From NCBI RefSeq assembly GCF_009931435.1, contig NZ_CP043414.1: DNA of 64,000 nt, one strand, 5' to 3'. The translations under genes were made by a program, and so were the position numbers. This DNA comes from Escherichia coli (lineage in GTDB: Bacteria; Pseudomonadota; Gammaproteobacteria; Enterobacterales; Enterobacteriaceae). Of the stretch, positions 11,858 through 20,053 are shown piece after piece (position 1 is the stretch's first letter; every line of letters begins with the position of its first letter). The notes beneath the pieces are model-generated. The model did no database searches and was not told the DNA's origin. It saw only the letters and a list, made by a program, of their open reading frames with translations.

Positions 11858-12742
11858 TCAGAACAGACGCTCCCACAGTGTGATCAGCAGGTGGATAATG
11901 CGGTCCCGGGCTTTACGCAGAAGCTGTAACATCCAGGCCGGAAAACTGAAACGGGCAACGGCGACGTCAAAACTTTTCCCGATGGTTTCACCAAAAGTCT
12001 GTTGTGCGTGTTTCTGGGCCTGTTCAGAGCGGTTTTCTCCCCGGATATGTGAATACACCGCGCTGGTTGCCTGTGGTGGCAGTGCGTGGATCATCAGCGA
12101 CACAAACGCCGGAAGGTTCCAGCCGACAGGTGCAGCAACGGAGAGTACCGGAAATGATGAAGGGAACAGGGTTGCCACCCGGGCTGTAACCGTCGCCAGT
12201 GAGAGCGCCTGCTGACGGGACGGGCATTTTTCTGTGGCATTCCATTCTTCAGCAGGAAACACGCGATCGGCATGGCTGAGAACAAACAGAAAACGCGAGG
12301 GATCTGCGCCTTCATTCAGTAAAAACTGATGCATGGTAATGTCGGCGGCATACGCGCGTTCATCTGCCCGCAGGATCCAGATAATCAAATCCACTTCCGG
12401 CAGTAACTGACGGTAAAGCGCCCGGTATTCCTGATCATGTTGCGGCGTCTCTCCAATGCCGGGCAGATCGACCAGCGTCATTCTGCGTTCACCGATCTGC
12501 AGGGTAAGACGATGAGCCTGGCGGGTGCAGCCGTTCAGGGGATGCGTGGCACAGATATGGGACTGAAAAATAGCATTACACAGGCTACTTTTGCCGGTGC
12601 CGGATTTACCCATAATGCCAATCACGGGTTCGTAATGAATAACGCTGTGGAGATGTTCAAGAATTTTCTGACGAATTTCTTCAGGAAGAAACGTCAGATA
12701 TGATTTCACTTGTGCGGAGAGGGAAGAATGGCTGAATGACAT
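11858..12742 (-). CDS. YfjP/YeeP/YkfA-family GTPase
   Basis: 294 aa. P-loop GKSGTGKSSLCNAIF, G3 motif DLPGIGE. Conserved CP4-element gene. Confidence 0.85.
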   Translation of the reverse strand: MSFSHSSLSAQVKSYLTFLPEEIRQKILEHLHSVIHYEPVIGIMGKSGTGKSSLCNAIFQSHICATHPLNGCTRQAHRLTLQIGERRMTLVDLPGIGETPQHDQEYRALYRQLLPEVDLIIWILRADERAYAADITMHQFLLNEGADPSRFLFVLSHADRVFPAEEWNATEKCPSRQQALSLATVTARVATLFPSSFPVLSVAAPVGWNLPAFVSLMIHALPPQATSAVYSHIRGENRSEQAQKHAQQTFGETIGKSFDVAVARFSFPAWMLQLLRKARDRIIHLLITLWERLF

Positions 12743-12926
12743 ACCGGTATCCTGTTGATTTCACTGAACCGGATCACACTAATCCGGTTTATCATTCAGG
12801 TAATATGGGCGTGAAAAATGATGGAATGTCTGAATTACGGACATTATTGTTAAAGTGTAATGGAGTATGGCGTCAGTTTTTCAGAACGGGAACTAATGAC
12901 ATACTGCTGTTTCAGGAGATGAGAGG

Positions 12927-14057
12927 ATGACCGGACGTAAAAACAAATGTGTCAGAAAAAATTGTAACAATCAGGTTTTCTCAGTAAAAATGGCAGTGGA
13001 GAAAAGACTGTGCAGAAAACATTATGAGAGGTTTTGTGAGCTCAAAAAAAGAAGAGAGCAAAATCCTGTTCACAGATTAAATGAAGCATTGCCAAGAAAG
13101 GTAGAAGGCCCAAAAAGAAAGAGGAAATTAGTAAAAGAAAGAGAAATCATTAACAGCAGGACGAAACATAAACAGGAGCAGGGACCATCTCTGGCTGAAC
13201 TTAATAAAAAAGTTCGTGAGATACTGAAAACCCCGGCATGGAGAACGCTGGAAACGAGAATTCGAAGAAACGGTATCACATTTAATTCAAAAGCAGAGTT
13301 AGATGCGCTTTCTGAACTTTATGCAATTTATTCATGGGTTTCATATTGCAAACGGTGCGATAATTATTCTGTGTGGTTTTTGAATTGTCCGGATGTAAAT
13401 ATAAATCTTCATGTGTGCGAATGCCGGTCTTCTGAAAGCGATTGTTATCTGCCATCCCGTTTTATTATTCTTCCAGCTCCATTAAGGCAAAAAGTAAAAA
13501 GAAAATACTCTGCTAATTCGTCTGGGGTATCAGGACATAATGATTCAAAAAGTCTTTATAAGACAGTTTTGTCTGTTTGTGGTGGGAAAAGAGAAACCGA
13601 ATTGTTCTTTTATTCACTGCCAGTAAAGACTAATCATCATCCTTACTGGATTAAAAGTGGTGTGGTTAAAAGATTTCCTCCTGTTTTTGGTTTGTTGTTT
13701 TATGAACAGGAAAGATTAACAGGAGGTGTTTTTCGTTATGTGTTGATAAGGTTTTATAATACTTTTAAGGAGAATTTGTTTTTTGTTGAGATTGTCTCGT
13801 GCTGTTTTCTTGTTGAGCTTTTTCATGATATTGATTCGTTTTTTATAAATCAACGATTAAGTAAGCTGGAAAGTTTTATAGATAAGTGGAGGGAGGGTAA
13901 AGAAATCTGGATAAAAGCATATCTACAACTGATACATAATACATTGGGAATAACTGAAACAGAAAAACTCGTCAATCTATATAATTCATTTTTTACTGAT
14001 AAAGTGGTTATCTGGGATGAATCAGTAAAAAAAGTTAAGTGGATTTATGAGAAATAG
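12927..14057 (+). CDS. hypothetical AT-rich Lys- and Cys-rich protein (orphan)
   Basis: 376-aa ORF with a GAGAGG Shine-Dalgarno before the ATG. N-terminal CxxxxC...CxxH pattern (CVRKNC...CRKHYERF), a basic linker and a hydrophobic C-terminal half. No family recognised. Confidence 0.5.
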   Translation: MTGRKNKCVRKNCNNQVFSVKMAVEKRLCRKHYERFCELKKRREQNPVHRLNEALPRKVEGPKRKRKLVKEREIINSRTKHKQEQGPSLAELNKKVREILKTPAWRTLETRIRRNGITFNSKAELDALSELYAIYSWVSYCKRCDNYSVWFLNCPDVNINLHVCECRSSESDCYLPSRFIILPAPLRQKVKRKYSANSSGVSGHNDSKSLYKTVLSVCGGKRETELFFYSLPVKTNHHPYWIKSGVVKRFPPVFGLLFYEQERLTGGVFRYVLIRFYNTFKENLFFVEIVSCCFLVELFHDIDSFFINQRLSKLESFIDKWREGKEIWIKAYLQLIHNTLGITETEKLVNLYNSFFTDKVVIWDESVKKVKWIYEK

Positions 14058-14596
14058 TACCATTTAACTGAAAGCCACCATAACGTCTTTTTGACTACAT
14101 CCATGATAATGAGTCTCATTTTGATTTCGTTTTTTTGTTCCGGGAAATTTTCCGAACATCAGTGATAATGAGGGTTTTGTTGTTTTTGTTTCTGCAATGT
14201 TTGAGGGCTGTTCCTGGAGATGATTCGTTGCTTGTGAGCAAGAGGTGGTCCGCTTTACTGGACAAGTTTTGCATTTGTTGAGTGGTGAAATGGAAGTAAA
14301 AAGAGCCCCTTTCTGGCAATGACTGAAAAAGTCAGTAGCGTGTGACAGTAAAAACTAACATAAAGTGATTATCGTATGATTATGACAATGACTTATAACT
14401 TTTATGAAAAGAACAACAGAAACTATGAAACCATAGCAGATTCCTGAGACCATGTTTTTTGAGGTAGAGAAAATAATTCAAGAGTAAACCAGTTTGTTTT
14501 TTGATCAGTAAAGAACCATGCCTGATGTGAAAACGGGTAATCAACATTCAGTCTGCATGAGTGTCTGAGAATGTTGCTAATGTCGGTATGATACTA

Positions 14597-14740
14597 TATA
14601 CACATATTTTACTAAGTATTTTTACTAAGCATTTCAGTAAGTGTTATACACGTATTTTCTACTAAGTGTTTTACCAGACATACACGTATTTTCATAAACA
14701 CTTCTACAAGTGTTTTCATTAAGTATTGTTATACACATTG
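14597..14740. repeat. iteron-like array of AAGT(G/A)TT and ATACAC(G/A)TATTTT motifs
   Basis: AAGTATT/AAGTGTT occurs at about 14614, 14638, 14664, 14708 and 14721, with an inverted copy AACACTT at about 14697. ATACAC(R)TATTTT occurs at about 14598, 14646 and 14680, and a truncated ATACACATTG at about 14731. Confidence 0.6.
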
Positions 14741-15523
14741 CTTTGTCTGACACACATCCGGTTTAGTAAATCTTTACGTTAGCTAAAATCAGTTTAAAGC
14801 TGCTACAAAGCAATCTTTCCTGTTTAAGCAATCAAGATGACATTCTGTTTTTCTGAAGTTACGTTTAACCTTTTCTGAGTTTTTGTGTTTTTGGTCGTTA
14901 ACCGGAGAAAAGTATCTTTACGTAAAAACGCAAATCCGACTGAGATAACCTGGCGTGATTTACGGAGTGCTTACGACGATTTAGTTAAATGGTTTTATGG
15001 ATGATTTTGTAGCGATGAGGTTGATGAGATGATTAACTGGCCCTGGTGTTTTTTTTCTCAGAGCAAGGCTCTTTTCAGAAAAAGCGTGATGATTGGTTCT
15101 GGTGTTTTGATTCAGATGAGGTTTACGTTATCGATGGTTAATCGCTTTTATGGTGCGTAGTGAAACGTAACATTTTCAGGATGAGAAAATCGATTCTGAT
15201 GTTAGTGGTTTTTGTTCTTGGGGTGGGGTTATCTGTAAACAGGTTTTAAACGCGCTATTCGGCTCTGTGATTGAGTTGTGTGGTTAAGCTATAGGTTTTG
15301 GTGTTGTTGTTGATTCACAGCGCCAGAAATCGTTCTGATTGCGTTTTTGATGTTTTGTTTGCACGTTCTGTTGATCCGTTTCCCTTCTGACTTTTCTCGT
15401 CGTCCATGCCGTTTTTAAATTCATTTGCTGTTGTTGTGTTTTTTTACCATCTTTTCGTTTGTAGGGGATTCCATTTTTATCCGGAGTAGGTTGTGTTGCT
15501 CAATGGTGGGAGTTCGTAAAGTT

Positions 15524-15553
15524 TTACCGCGGTGATTAATGATGTGAAGTCAA
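15524..15553 (+). repeat. conserved leader motif copy 1 (TTACCGCnnTGATTAATGATGTGAA..AAGTCAA)
   Basis: ttaccgcggtgattaatgatgtgaagtcaa lies 25 bp upstream of the first Gp2-like gene. A near-identical copy lies at 16460-16500. Confidence 0.6.
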
Positions 15554-15578
15554 TCCAAATCAATGGAGATCTCTCATC

Positions 15579-16310
15579 ATGAATCAACCAATACACAATG
15601 CTTACTGGTTATCCCGTTTTGAAAGTATTCTCAACAGTGCCCTGGCGCAACACCGTGCCGTCTCGTTAATCCGGGTGGATTTACGTTTCCCTGAGTATAT
15701 GCCTGCCACCATTATGGATACCGATTTAGATTCAGCGGTGATTTCTCGTTTTTTCGAATCCCTGAAAGCAAAAATTCAGGCTTACCAGCGACATAAACGA
15801 CGTGCCAACAAGCGTGTGCATGCAACCACTCTGCGTTATTTCTGGTGCCGGGAGTTCGGCAAGGAAAAAGGCAGGAAACATTATCACGTGATATTACTGC
15901 TCAACAAAGATACCTGGTGCTCGCCAGGGGATTTCACCGTTCCTTCTTCGCTGGCGACGCTGATCCAACTGGCATGGTGCAGTGCTCTGCATCTTGAGCC
16001 CTGGCAGGGTAATGGACTGGTTCATTTTTCCAGGCGGACGCCTTTCCGTAAACCGACATCATCCGATGCTCGCCCTTCTTCCGATGACACGCCTTTACCT
16101 GGTGGATGTTCTGATACCCGGAAGGATTCTGACAAAAAGTCTGGTGGATCCGCTGTGCTCTGGATCAAGCGTGGTGATGTAGAAGCGATGCAGAAAGCCA
16201 TGGAGAGAGCCCGTTATCTCGTGAAGTATGAGACGAAGCAGCATGACGGTTCTGGTCAACGTAATTATGGTTGCAGTCGTGGAGCGGGGCGTCTACTGGA
16301 TGGCAGGTGA
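15579..16310 (+). CDS. inovirus-Gp2-like protein (YagK/YfjJ family)
   Basis: 243 aa. The blocks LIRVDLRFPE...YFWCREFGKEKGRKHYHVILLLNKD are typical of the YagK/YfjJ family as recalled. Confidence 0.7.
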   Translation: MNQPIHNAYWLSRFESILNSALAQHRAVSLIRVDLRFPEYMPATIMDTDLDSAVISRFFESLKAKIQAYQRHKRRANKRVHATTLRYFWCREFGKEKGRKHYHVILLLNKDTWCSPGDFTVPSSLATLIQLAWCSALHLEPWQGNGLVHFSRRTPFRKPTSSDARPSSDDTPLPGGCSDTRKDSDKKSGGSAVLWIKRGDVEAMQKAMERARYLVKYETKQHDGSGQRNYGCSRGAGRLLDGR

Positions 16311-16459
16311 ACCCTGTAAAACGGCATCCGGTGCCTGAGCGTATGCCACGGTAGGGCGTCAGCCAACGCCCTTACCTCGTATTCTGATCACTCATTCTGA
16401 AGTCATGCAACGGTATTTTTATCTGCTTCCGCTCTTGGAAACACTCCGTCGGTAAAAAC

Positions 16460-16500
16460 TTACCGCCTTGATTAATGATGTGAACCGAAGTCAACGGAGG
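16460..16500 (+). repeat. conserved leader motif copy 2
   Basis: ttaccgccttgattaatgatgtgaaccgaagtcaacggagg. It shares the TGATTAATGATGTGAA core and the downstream CAAyGGAG with copy 1. Confidence 0.6.
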
Positions 16501-16693
16501 TCATTCACCTTAAACCCACCTCAGGAATTTTACACCTGTCAGGTCTCCTGACTGTCCTGGCATACGACATCTGCCATCCCCGGTTCCACGGTTATTACAT
16601 CAACAACCTCTGTACACGACGCCTTCAGTTTCACAATACGCTCGTCTTTCGCTGGCGGGGATGCGTCGTGCGTTTCTATATGGAGCATATCTT

Positions 16694-17266
16694 ATGAATG
16701 GTATCCCTCATTTCGACTATAGCCTGGCGCCCTTCTGGCCGTCTTATCAGAACAAAATCATCGGTGTTCTCAACCGTGCGCTGCGTGAACAGTCCTGCTC
16801 CCGGGTACGGCGGATCCTGCTTCGTCTGCCATGTGAATATGACACTACCTTCAGTAGCAGAAAGACCTGGTTTGGTATGGACTTTATCGAAACTGTCAGT
16901 GCGCTGATGAATGCAAACCCCGGACGTGATCTCTGCTGGCTCCTGACTCGTCATCCGGAAAAGCCGGAATACCACGTGGTGCTGTGCGTCAGACAGGAGT
17001 ATTTCGACGGCCCCGAACTGGATCGGTTGATACTGGATGCCTGGAGCAACGTACTGGGCTTCGCGTCACCGGGTGAAGCGGCACCGTACCAGAAGCAGAT
17101 AACACGGGATGTGGTGCTGGACAGTCGTTCACCGGACTGCGAAGACATCCTCAAAGAGCTGATATGGGCATTCAGTGATTTCGCCCGCGATCGTCGTGGT
17201 GTGCGCGATCCGGAAGCCCGTTACCTCGTCGGTAATCCCTGGTATCCCGTAGCAGGCCAGCTCTGA
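16694..17266 (+). CDS. divergent Gp2-like (YfjJ-family) paralogue
   Basis: Start chosen at ATG 16694, which has GGAG 8 nt upstream. ILLRLPCEYD...EYHVVLCVRQEYF is colinear with the RVDLRFPE...HYHVILLL blocks of the 15579 gene. Confidence 0.5.
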   Translation: MNGIPHFDYSLAPFWPSYQNKIIGVLNRALREQSCSRVRRILLRLPCEYDTTFSSRKTWFGMDFIETVSALMNANPGRDLCWLLTRHPEKPEYHVVLCVRQEYFDGPELDRLILDAWSNVLGFASPGEAAPYQKQITRDVVLDSRSPDCEDILKELIWAFSDFARDRRGVRDPEARYLVGNPWYPVAGQL

Positions 17267-17334: not shown

Positions 17335-17568
17335 ATGTTGACCACAACAAGCCACGACAGCGTATTGCTGCGTGCTGACGATCCCCTGATCGACATGAAC
17401 TACATCACCAGTTTCACCGGTATGACCGATAAATGGTTTTACAAGCTGATCAGTGAAGGCCATTTTCCTAAACCCATCAAACTGGGTCGCAGCAGCCGCT
17501 GGTACAAAAGCGAAGTGGAGCAGTGGATGCAGCAGCGAATCGAGGAGTCACGAGGAGCTGCTGCATGA
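17335..17568 (+). CDS. alpA: AlpA-family phage/island transcriptional regulator
   Basis: 77 aa. The MerR-like HTH ITSFTGMTDKWFYKLISEGHFPKPIKLGRSSRWYKSEVEQWM is the AlpA signature. Confidence 0.8.
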   Translation: MLTTTSHDSVLLRADDPLIDMNYITSFTGMTDKWFYKLISEGHFPKPIKLGRSSRWYKSEVEQWMQQRIEESRGAAA

Positions 17569-17833: not shown

Positions 17834-18382
17834 GTGCAAATAACCGAAGCATTACTTTCAGAGCCAGGGGAAATCCGGCGTTTTGTTCAGCAGGCGGTGG
17901 ATCACTGGCCGCATCTGTTGGCATTTCACTTCACGCTCCATTCGGCTGAAGAAAACATCAACGGGCAACGGGTTCAGACATTCTGTACTTCCTTTTACCG
18001 GCAGGTACACGAACGTATTGCTGAACGTAATCACACGGCCAGTCCATCATCGCCGTTGGTATTACGCTGGTTGCGGGAACAACATGGAAAAGCAACAATA
18101 CGATGCCTGTTGCTGCTCAGCCAGACGAGCATTTGCCATCCGCGAGCCAGTGTCACAGTTGATGAACAATGTTCGCAAGTGGTGGATTTACTGCAACATA
18201 GCTGGCAGGTGATAAGTGCTGGCGGACAATGCCGGGTGGAAAGGTGTTTTCGGGTTGCCCGGGGTGATACATCCGGTCAGTATGTTGCGTTAAAAACAGT
18301 CGCATTGTCTCTGGGGTTACCGGTTGTGACCGCCATTACCCATCGTCCGGTACAGCGCTGTACATTGATTACAGCTCAGTGA
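17834..18382 (+). CDS. third Gp2-like (YfjJ-family) paralogue, GTG start
   Basis: 182 aa. LLAFHFTLHSAE...IRCLLLLSQ pattern parallels the other two. Assignment is weak. Confidence 0.4.
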   Translation: MQITEALLSEPGEIRRFVQQAVDHWPHLLAFHFTLHSAEENINGQRVQTFCTSFYRQVHERIAERNHTASPSSPLVLRWLREQHGKATIRCLLLLSQTSICHPRASVTVDEQCSQVVDLLQHSWQVISAGGQCRVERCFRVARGDTSGQYVALKTVALSLGLPVVTAITHRPVQRCTLITAQ

Positions 18383-18725: not shown

Positions 18726-19618
18726 ATGCCGCCACGGTGTTTTTTCAGCAGAGCAGGGCTCTGTTTATCGTTCAACTGTGGTATCCGTTCCCTGGCCTTC
18801 ACGTTGTGTGCAGTGTTCGTTTTATCCTGCAGCGGCGTTGCCGGTGATTTACTGAAAATGCCCTGTGGTTTACGGTTAATGGTCAGCGTTACCATCAGTA
18901 TTGTTACCTCATGCTGTCAATGGAAGTAGTACTCCATCCAGAGCCTTGGCGACCCCGGGGCTGAAAACGAAACAATAACCCGCGCACAGTGCGAGGAGCC
19001 CGGGCGTGAAGCAATCAGCAGGTAATATTAATGGCAAGACCAGTAGGTTCTTTAAACAAACGAACAATATCAGCAAATACGACAACTCCCGGAGAGGTAA
19101 AAAGTTTTTCACTTGAGCACTTCTTAAAAAAATGGAGACGAACAAAAATGGGGCGACATACCTGGAAAGTATTGCTACCAGATGATGCTAAAAAGCAGAA
19201 ATAGTGTTCCAGGCCTGAAAGGGATGAGAATCAGTATCTGTGTGTATTTATAACATCTTCTTGAAGAGGCTGGAGATTGTTAGTCCATTAGTATAATCGA
19301 TATTCGTGTTCCTGCGAATATGCAGGCTACACCAGATATATGATTGCTACCGAATTTCATCAGTTTGATGAAATTACGCATCATACTGCGGGTTTTTCTC
19401 ATTAACATTAACGAAAGTGAATGGACTCAGACAAGTAGTGACCGGCGCAATTTCGCTAAGTATCAAATACAAAGAACGTTCTCTTACTTTCTGCGATGGC
19501 CTTTCCTTCGGAAAGGAAGTGACGATTAAGTACCGAAAAATGTGATACACATATTATTTTTATGGTGAATCACCTGATAGGATTTGCCATAAATGAATGA
19601 AAAGCTGAGTGTTAATAA

Positions 19619-20053
19619 ATGAGTAAGAAGAAAATTCCTTTTGAAAATGAAGAGTTCATTACTTACCGGGCATTACTTCTGAGTATTGACTTTGTTAAAA
19701 AACTGGTTATAGAAATGTCTGATGAAGATTTAAATAAGGTTAAGGAAAACTTTGACATAGCTATTCAGCAACGTAATGAGCGAAAGGAAAATATGAAAGC
19801 TATCAAATCACTCATGGATGAACATGGTATATCTCTGGAAGATTTTTATTGTGAATTTGGCAAAAAATCACAGGCAGGCAGAAAAAGTGTGTCAGGAAGG
19901 CATAAATACGAGTATGACGATAACGGTAAAAGAATGTACTGGAATGGACAAGGACGTCGGCCTAAGGCCATAGCAGAGGCTATAAAAGCCGGAGGTTCTC
20001 TTGATGATTTTCTTATATCTCAGGAAGTATCATCTGGTCCTGATTATGAATAA
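19619..20053 (+). CDS. H-NS-family nucleoid-associated protein (island-borne paralogue)
   Basis: 144 aa. Coiled-coil N-terminus. The C-terminal YWNGQGRRPKAIAEAIKAGGSLDDFLI corresponds to H-NS [28 protein letters not shown]. Confidence 0.85.
   Translation: MSKKKIPFENEEFITYRALLLSIDFVKKLVIEMSDEDLNKVKENFDIAIQQRNERKENMKAIKSLMDEHGISLEDFYCEFGKKSQAGRKSVSGRHKYEYDDNGKRMYWNGQGRRPKAIAEAIKAGGSLDDFLISQEVSSGPDYE

Follow-up and report, generated by a model that had tools for sequence, protein, structure and literature searches.

HUH-fold proteins such as adeno-associated virus (AAV) Rep, parvovirus NS1, geminivirus Rep, pMV158 RepB and Ff gpII recognise tandem short repeats beside the nick site, and the repeats recognised by Rep proteins often lie upstream of the rep gene, which is autoregulated through them. 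In the present study we analysed a stretch of 64,000 nucleotides from Escherichia coli (contig NZ_CP043414.1, assembly GCF_009931435.1; hereafter the window), in which a conserved non-coding module carrying an array of short repeats precedes a gene apparently of this class, the yagJ-type gene of a chromosomal island (Table 1). The gene-free stretch and its non-random repeat array are real, and the locus fits best among the repeat and operator regions that accompany Rep-like genes. Most of its sequence diverges at least at the silent-site rate, and it is probably an ordinary control region or a relic origin. We tentatively favour the reading that positions 14470-15578 are a promoter/operator control region of the HUH gene, which would combine a multi-site array with a long untranslated leader.

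The closest described systems each share a part of this arrangement. The Ff intergenic region is about 0.5 kb long and is built of conserved hairpins, one of which contains the nick site; as here, a long non-coding stretch with a T-rich plus strand and short repeats, which the initiator might bind, lies before the gene of an HUH initiator of the gpII family (PF23343/PF11726). Unlike Ff, the present locus has no conserved hairpin and no similarity to phage records, is located in a chromosomal island, and is followed by the gene of a protein that is only a distant relative. In pMV158-type origins and in the Rep repeats of parvoviruses, AAV and geminiviruses an HUH nickase gene also stands beside tandem short direct repeats, and the repeats double as autoregulatory operators. 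Here, in contrast, no nick hairpin was identified, two kinds of box occur at irregular spacing, and the array is about 0.85-1 kb away from the gene. Staphylococcus aureus pathogenicity islands, phage-inducible chromosomal islands and P4-like satellites likewise carry integrase and AlpA, are located at tRNA genes and have, next to a replication-type gene, AT-rich non-coding DNA that contains a repeat array. Their initiators are helicases or primase-helicases, and the unwinding region beside their rep gene is AT-rich and flanked by iterons, whereas the neighbour here is an apparent HUH nickase and the island is without a helicase partner. Finally, H-NS-silenced regions, for instance those upstream of ler or hilA, are, like the region here, long, AT-rich and placed before island regulators, and the present island carries an H-NS paralogue; however, the strand asymmetry, exact repeats and palindromes found here are not features of that class.

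Results

A gene-free stretch with a non-random repeat array

An earlier note on this DNA had drawn attention to positions 14320-15578, reporting no open reading frame (ORF) of at least 60 residues and a T/G-rich plus strand with long T runs. Both observations are borne out. The ORF inventory holds none of that length on either strand, the longest encoding 55 residues (14380-14547, minus strand), followed by 46 (15284-15424, minus) and 43 residues (15029-15160, plus). The plus strand of 14746-15578 contains T at 0.39, G at 0.236, A at 0.22 and C at 0.15, with T runs of 8 nt (15049-15056) and 7 nt (15439-15445), unlike the downstream gene (15579-16310), whose base composition is balanced; values of 0.39 for T and 0.156 for C hold in all copies of the module. 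The GC content is 0.35-0.43 across 13-16 kb of the window, compared with 0.50-0.55 in the flanking core genes. The gap without genes starts at 14058. RefSeq annotation is empty across 14320-15578 in near-identical genomes, and a short hypothetical protein is annotated by RefSeq in the region of the CFT073 copy. What is unusual is the length of this non-coding DNA; the absence of ORFs, which the note had called unusual for a bacterial genome, in itself is not, since by our own estimate 1.26 kb without them is roughly the expectation for AT-rich non-coding DNA. No annotation or description of the region was found in the records and literature searched (YfjJ, YagK, YagJ, inovirus Gp2, and HUH together with islands).

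The array is formed by two interleaved short boxes, A and B, and is about 73% A+T. It lies inside 14320-15578 and not just upstream of it, as first described, while the motif counts given at that time are exact. AAGTRTT is present in five direct copies (14614, 14639, 14664, 14708 and 14721) and one inverted copy (14697-14703), and the A box in three full copies and a truncated one, ATACACRTATTTT being exact at 14598, 14646 and 14680, that is, three times within 95 bp, and truncated at 14731. Chance would provide about 0.15 matches to ATACACRTATTTT with at most one mismatch in the whole window, and four of the six matches to TAAGTRTT in the window fall in the array. Unbiased k-mer counts in the region gave ATACAC four times against 0.21 expected and TACTAAG three times against 0.05. 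Direct 8-mer pairs less than 200 bp apart number 29, compared with 6.9 ± 3.3 in shuffled sequences. Tandem Repeats Finder reports a period of 13 nt with 5.2 copies at 14607-14672 (66% matches).

The array is present in all 63 homologues in which both anchors could be delimited. It exists in 37 different versions, which measure 112-232 bp and contain between 0 and 4 A boxes and between 1 and 7 B boxes. Position matrices from about 180 instances of each box show fixed cores, ATACAC...T and TAAG..TT, with free flanks. Fixed cores among free neighbours are typical of a recognition motif and not of recent slippage. The motifs are both conserved in related islands and more frequent than chance, two of the points on which the earlier note had let its finding depend, and the finding survives. 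The further proposal of a binding array for an island protein agrees with the fixed cores, with a promoter-like element beside the array and with the recurrence of arrays in other genera; from the sequence, the array probably binds a protein. Classical iterons, understood as at least three near-identical repeats of about 17-22 bp in regular helical phasing, were not found, as the boxes measure 12-14 bp, are of two types and show spacings of 12, 13, 25, 46 and 12 bp. A search for DnaA boxes beside the array gave a single relaxed match, TTATACACA at 14729-14737, which was rejected because it is not conserved in the homologues and such matches occur in the window at chance frequency (8 compared with 5.7). 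The palindrome within the array is intact in 28 of 69 copies only and hence is not a conserved hairpin; no perfect stem of at least 6 bp is common to most of these copies, the best one, near 14704, being intact in 28.

Table 1. Coordinates of the module, its elements and the neighbouring genes, with segment divergence
Feature	Position in the window	Strand	Remarks
Minus-strand operon	starts with YfjP-like GTPase, 11858-12742	minus	then WYL, DUF932, antirestriction, RadC/JAB, CbtA/YeeU toxin-antitoxin pair
Plus-strand block, in order	12927-14057; gap; 15579-16310; 16661-17266; 17335-17568; 17834-18382	plus	376-aa gene; gap; 243-aa gene; 201-aa gene; AlpA-like; 182-aa gene
376-aa hypothetical gene	12927-14057	plus	hypervariable, Cys-rich; no family match
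3' flank of 376-aa gene	14058-14469		variable, gene-free; outside the inter-island conserved module
Conserved non-coding module	14470-15578	plus	always precedes the yagJ-type HUH gene
Extended -10-like element TGnTACTAT	14589-14597	plus	putative; predicted start inside first A box
A/B-box array	14597-14745	plus	two interleaved short boxes
A boxes TATACACRTATTTT	14597-14610, 14645-14658, 14679-14692; truncated copy 14730-14739	plus	
B boxes TTYANTAAGYRTTT	cores at 14613, 14626, 14638, 14663, 14707, 14720	plus	mostly 12-13 bp apart
Palindrome in array	14696-14715		AAACACTT-CTAC-AAGTGTTT; 8-bp arms
Palindrome O1 GTAAATCTTTAC	14766-14777		exact match to GTAAANNTTTAC; in 52 of 69 copies
T-rich, C-poor spacer	14778-15500	plus	putative untranslated leader
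Palindrome O2 GTAAAGTTTTAC	15516-15527		in 68 of 69 copies
Constrained proximal element	15501-15578	plus	O2, box TGATTAATGATGTGAA, Shine-Dalgarno GGAG (15565-15568)
yagJ-type gene	15579-16310	plus	243 aa; Gp2/YagK-YfjJ family; apparent HUH nickase
201-aa gene	16661-17266	plus	degenerate HUH-gene paralogue; EYH replaces HYH; hhalign probability 90.7%, E = 1.2e-6
Divergence relative to four-fold sites	14470-14596		1.9 times
Divergence relative to four-fold sites	array		1.6 times, inflated by repeat misalignment
Divergence relative to four-fold sites	14746-15087		1.65 times
Divergence relative to four-fold sites	15088-15390		1.2 times
Divergence relative to four-fold sites	15391-15500		2.2 times
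Divergence relative to four-fold sites	15501-15578		0.54 times; sole segment below 1

Promoter-like element, palindromes and proximal element

Directly 5' of the array stands the element TGnTACTAT. About 64 of the 69 copies retain it, in the form TGATACTAT, TGGTACTAT or TGGTATTAT, and the only plus-strand call of the promoter scanner, CTGAGA-16-TATGAT (14565-14592), overlaps it. Its sequence leads us to infer a rightward promoter of the extended -10 type. Intrinsic terminators were not found on the plus strand between 12600 and 16400. The 12-bp palindrome GTAAANNTTTAC occurs exactly twice in 64 kb, at both ends of the T-rich spacer, and in most copies without O1 its half-sites are separated by an insertion. 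From 14900 to 15500 the plus-strand C/G ratio is 0.32-0.90 per 100 nt. The proximal element is retained in K-12 upstream of yagJ, where an insertion sequence (IS), IS1, has cut the region, and a paralogous element, formed by the palindrome (with one mismatch, 16452-16463) and TTGATTAATGATGTGAA, is found at 16450-16500 before the 201-aa gene. These elements exist and are non-random.

Distribution and boundaries of the module

Many megablast matches begin at query 406-414, corresponding to about 14470 in the window, and extend to the ATG of the HUH gene. Identity between island families is 0.3-0.5 to the left of this position and 0.7-0.9 to the right, and the inter-island conserved unit starts sharply there. 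By megablast the module is found in 1877 of 5426 complete E. coli genomes, at up to seven places per genome and almost always in the chromosome; the E. coli copies number roughly 2600. A metagenome scan with an internal 24-mer listed 80 loci; together with the genome loci these provided 69 unique full-length copies, 72-100% identical, all with the left boundary near 14470. The length in 51 measured copies is 1046-1204 bp (median 1093). The synteny is constant: the GTPase gene is followed by a plus-strand gene that encodes 316-407 aa, and a gene-free interval of about 1.1-1.5 kb separates the latter from the Gp2-family gene.

The copy of CFT073 (NC_004431.1 4331600-4333118) is 98% identical. 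In K-12 MG1655 the orthologue of the 243-aa gene is yagJ (b0276), and IS1C cuts the region 98 bp before its ATG. As IS1C removed everything beyond this point, K-12 lacks the module, which explains why it is missing from the best-annotated genome. About one sixth of the sampled genomes keep just the proximal 84-111 bp, the module being truncated by IS insertions. In one natural variant (loci L004 4787-5318, L007 and L015) positions 15121-15468 are swapped for about 1.2 kb with a minus-strand ORF of 149-171 aa. RefSeq labels this ORF as a frameshifted 'DNA-binding protein', and Pfam and NCBIfam scans of its 149-aa form were without match.

Phage records showed no similarity to the module, and its plasmid relatives are limited to four E. 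coli plasmids, of which the one checked, a 31.7-kb 'plasmid' match considered as an excised-island episome, was rejected as an IncF replicon fragment. The search for the module in other genera through a collection of species-representative genomes gave two loci only, both probably mis-binned E. coli contigs, and was likewise discarded.

Evolutionary rate

The four-fold sites of the adjacent gene, with a pairwise divergence of 0.090, were taken as the reference for the divergence of each segment (Table 1). At the same loci, the mean identity to the window copy is 0.866 for the module and 0.898 for these sites. Divergence above the synonymous level implies that any function is confined to short elements, composition or length. 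The kilobase appears 'conserved' because the islands are young and for no other reason, and the comparison with four-fold sites rules out global conservation as a sign of function. Furthermore, segment divergence correlates poorly with the divergence of the coding sequence (0.0-0.3), which indicates a recombinational mosaic.

Coding capacity and RNA structure

No reading frame is kept across the homologues; the ORFs vary between copies, and indels whose lengths are not multiples of three (1, 4, 5 and 20 nt) are common. The recurrent ORFs of 82 and 89 aa had no match in Pfam or NCBIfam. A concatenated six-frame query against 5.8 billion proteins gave none at E <= 1e-3, which is a weak negative as the hypothetical protein of CFT073 was also missed. 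A hidden or decayed gene was thus rejected on account of unstable ORFs, frame-breaking indels and the lack of a family or protein match. The spacing of 750 bp between the palindromes prompted the idea of a decayed Gp2 paralogue between them, also rejected after a profile HMM (hidden Markov model) search in six frames of 69 copies, with a best E-value of 0.32. A TGA at 15002-15004 is in frame and aligns with TGT or TGC (Cys) in copies with the 89-aa plus-strand ORF, in an island located at selC. A selenocysteine reading of this codon was discarded as a coincidence, since indels of 4 nt and 20 nt disrupt the frame elsewhere among the copies.

An Rfam search of 12-18 kb gave no match in the region at E <= 1 and two chance-level matches outside it. 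Sliding RNAalifold on both strands of 67 copies found no conserved fold, with -0.3 to -12 kcal/mol per 160 nt and 0-5 compensatory pairs. Coding capacity and conserved RNA structure are absent.

Island setting and neighbouring genes

The window holds a composite E. coli island of the CP4 type at the selenocysteine tRNA gene (tRNA-Sec, selC) and, by megablast, matches strain FORC 064 almost exactly (99.9% across the query). The repeat region is located between two blocks conserved in CP4-type islands. The 243-aa protein matches PF11726 and PF23343, and residues H101, H103, Y213 and K216 are invariant in 20 relatives (down to 40% identity). The invariant HUH motif (H101/H103) and YxxK motif (Y213/K216) point to an intact HUH nickase, which the protein apparently is, and the best matches of its structural model are the origin-binding nickase domains of NS1/Rep. 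The earlier note had counted three Gp2-like genes downstream. The first of them is a clear Pfam member and the 201-aa gene a remote homologue with a degenerate HUH motif, while the 182-aa product shows no significant relation to the Gp2 family (hhalign probability 1.7%). The 201-aa gene, together with its preceding control element, looks like a tandem duplication followed by the loss of catalytic residues.

In other islands the place of the 376-aa ORF is taken by one of 407 aa, and the two are collinear and 20% identical. Their products share a Lys/Arg-rich N-terminus with C-x4-C...C-x2-H and a C-terminal motif. By sequence these ORFs form one hypervariable family between two conserved blocks, possibly of DNA-binding or (anti-)defence proteins. 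We consider 14058-14469 as the variable flank of the 376-aa gene because homology starts at about 14470 and this gene is hypervariable. The flank contains a direct repeat of 36 nt, 75% identical, at 14097-14132 and 14156-14191, with T-rich runs after each copy.

The island also encodes an H-NS-family protein (19619-20053). About 60 nt upstream of its gene, at 19545-19557, there is an A-box-like sequence with one mismatch, ATACACATATTAT, one of only two near A-box matches outside the array in 64 kb. On the other side of the module, about 75 bp upstream of the GTPase gene (12743-12818) are almost invariant across islands and far better conserved than anything in 14470-15578. This stretch contains a perfect inverted repeat with 8-bp arms, AACCGGAT-CACACTA-ATCCGGTT at 12768-12790, found in about 62 fetched loci, which could be an operator or a 5'-UTR (untranslated region) hairpin of the minus-strand operon, or a candidate for a nick-site hairpin.

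Related loci in other genera

Gp2-like genes of 37-50% identity in Brenneria, Morganellaceae, Providencia, Jinshanibacter and metagenomic hosts have the same divergent layout with AlpA alongside. In seven further lineages, 400-1350 bp without genes precede these distant genes, and no nucleotide similarity was found between their upstream regions and the E. coli module. Local direct repeats are enriched in five of the nine lineages tested (the window and K-12 yfjJ being counted), and the arrays are unrelated in sequence. The upstream region of Providencia has TATGTGTTT three times, and that of Brenneria has GACACATTTTA three times plus one inverted copy. A contig of Jinshanibacter sp. LJY008 (locus L119, 2573-2760) carries five tandem 36-bp units, each with a palindrome of 11-bp arms, TTAGTATTAAT-AAT-ATTAATACTAA. 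These units lie 240-430 bp upstream of the Gp2-like gene and downstream of alpA, and a hairpin resembling a terminator comes after them. Strand asymmetry is not a common trait of the distant lineages. Gp2-like, AlpA and RadC genes are among those present in many Pseudomonas tmRNA islands (10.1101/2024.08.29.610337, preprint).

Discussion

If the module is the control region of the HUH gene, as we favour, the TGnTACTAT promoter would fire rightwards, and the A/B-box array, which would make up about the first 150 bp to be transcribed, would offer multiple sites to a DNA-binding protein encoded by the island. The likeliest binder would be the HUH protein itself, as Rep proteins bind iterons beside their own genes; the AlpA-like protein of the excisionase family and the hypervariable 376-aa protein may be considered as alternatives. 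Occupancy of the array would set the amount of transcription that enters the leader. The two GTAAANNTTTAC palindromes (14766 and 15516) would act as operators bracketing a T-rich, C-poor spacer of about 740 nt, which would be read through as an untranslated leader free of sequence constraint. With C below G, this leader would be a good Rho substrate in antisense and a poor one in sense, because the sense strand is C-poor and G/T-rich. The last 80 bp or so would provide the constrained operator and the ribosome-binding site. What this scheme infers from the base sequence is that the promoter is active, that transcripts run through the region, that a protein binds the array and that Rho would discriminate between the strands.

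Several observations weigh against such a control region. There is no canonical -35 with the predicted promoter, and the scanner finds fewer promoter-like sites (5) than in shuffled sequences (9.7). The spacing of the boxes is irregular, from 12 to 46 bp, some copies of the array have few boxes, and the identity given to its binding protein is a guess. Most of the module diverges faster than synonymous sites. The natural variant with an opposite-strand gene in place of 15121-15468 is awkward for an obligatory read-through leader, and four of the nine lineages show no repeat enrichment.

The main rival, which we consider unlikely, is that the region is or was an origin of the rolling-circle type, either a double-strand origin or the origin of transfer (oriT) of the excised island, with the array as the 'bind' locus of the YagJ-type nickase and perhaps surviving here as a relic. 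The earlier note had listed a vestigial origin among its options. The part of this that stands is the neighbourhood, with an apparently intact HUH nickase gene immediately downstream as a cognate initiator, and a near-neutral evolution that fits a relic. Direct repeats are present and conserved, and may be a bind locus that the initiator recognises. The layout also resembles that of the Ff intergenic region before gene II and the Rep-repeat arrangements of pMV158, geminiviruses and AAV. In related islands a YfjI/DUF3987 gene, which we take to be possibly primase/helicase-like, adjoins the HUH gene, and the antirestriction, DUF932 and RadC neighbours on the minus strand resemble the cargo of plasmid leading regions, so that a position of the origin between the two gene blocks would be reasonable. 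Repeat arrays that recur with lineage-specific sequences would be expected of sites co-evolving with their initiator, and a T-rich, C-poor strand is what exposure as single-stranded DNA would produce. The part that does not stand is the nick site, since no hairpin, inverted repeat or nick-site candidate is conserved among the 69 copies. Moreover, phage origins show no similarity, plasmid matches are as few as described above, the sole DnaA-box match is not above chance, the strand asymmetry is not common to distant lineages, the island is without a YfjI-type partner, and no report of the replication of such islands was found in the literature searched.

It is also doubtful, though worth weighing, that the region, except for about 80 proximal bp, is old and fully decayed DNA without function, which travels with the island and in which slippage and unequal recombination made the repeats and reshuffle them. 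Everywhere except 15501-15578 divergence is 1.2-2.2 times that of four-fold sites; indels are frequent, a block of about 350 bp is replaced in one variant, the length of the array drifts, IS elements have truncated the region in about a sixth of the sampled genomes as in K-12, and no RNA structure is conserved. Against neutral decay, the length of the module has been held within narrow limits despite the deletion bias of bacteria, and the box cores and both palindromes are kept while neighbouring bases change. The TGn motif is preserved through compensating variants, no protein remnant was recovered in the six-frame search or with the Gp2 profile, and long repeat-bearing upstream regions recur in other genera.

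A stronger form of the origin hypothesis, in our opinion quite unlikely, is that the module is the working origin of common CP4-type islands, where after excision by AlpA and the integrase the HUH nickase would bind the array, nick, and drive rolling-circle replication or the production of single-stranded DNA for transfer. We give still less credence to a silencing platform for H-NS, either that of the host or the island paralogue, in which a long, AT-rich and curved region would keep HUH and AlpA off, with the repeats as incidental sites of high affinity or of anti-silencing. The low GC content of 13-16 kb relative to the flanking core genes, the H-NS-family gene of the island and the A-box-like sequence upstream of it are in line with such a platform, and a function at the level of composition would fit a sequence that diverges fast but keeps its length and composition. 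Such a platform accounts, however, for neither the strand asymmetry nor the specific box cores and exact palindromes. A functional RNA product of the region, either one long non-coding RNA, as the earlier note had also suggested, or small RNAs, is very improbable and finds no support as a structured RNA, as the greater stability of the plus-strand fold (-247 compared with -178 kcal/mol for the minus strand) is expected from its G+U content alone, and the lack of an interrupting plus-strand terminator is set against the absence of an Rfam match, a weak RNAalifold consensus and divergence above the synonymous rate; transcription as an unstructured leader is plausible on sequence grounds.

For the biology of these islands, the lack of sequence constraint on most of the 'conserved' kilobase calls for caution in expecting a complex origin or a functional RNA of large size. 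CP4-type islands lack genes for conjugation and packaging, and a working origin, if true, would provide them with their own means of mobility. Their cargo includes virulence, resistance and anti-phage functions, and about one third of complete E. coli genomes contain the module, frequently more than once. The definition of discrete cis elements beside the HUH gene, namely the TGn element, the A/B array and the two palindromes, makes the control of HUH and AlpA experimentally approachable.

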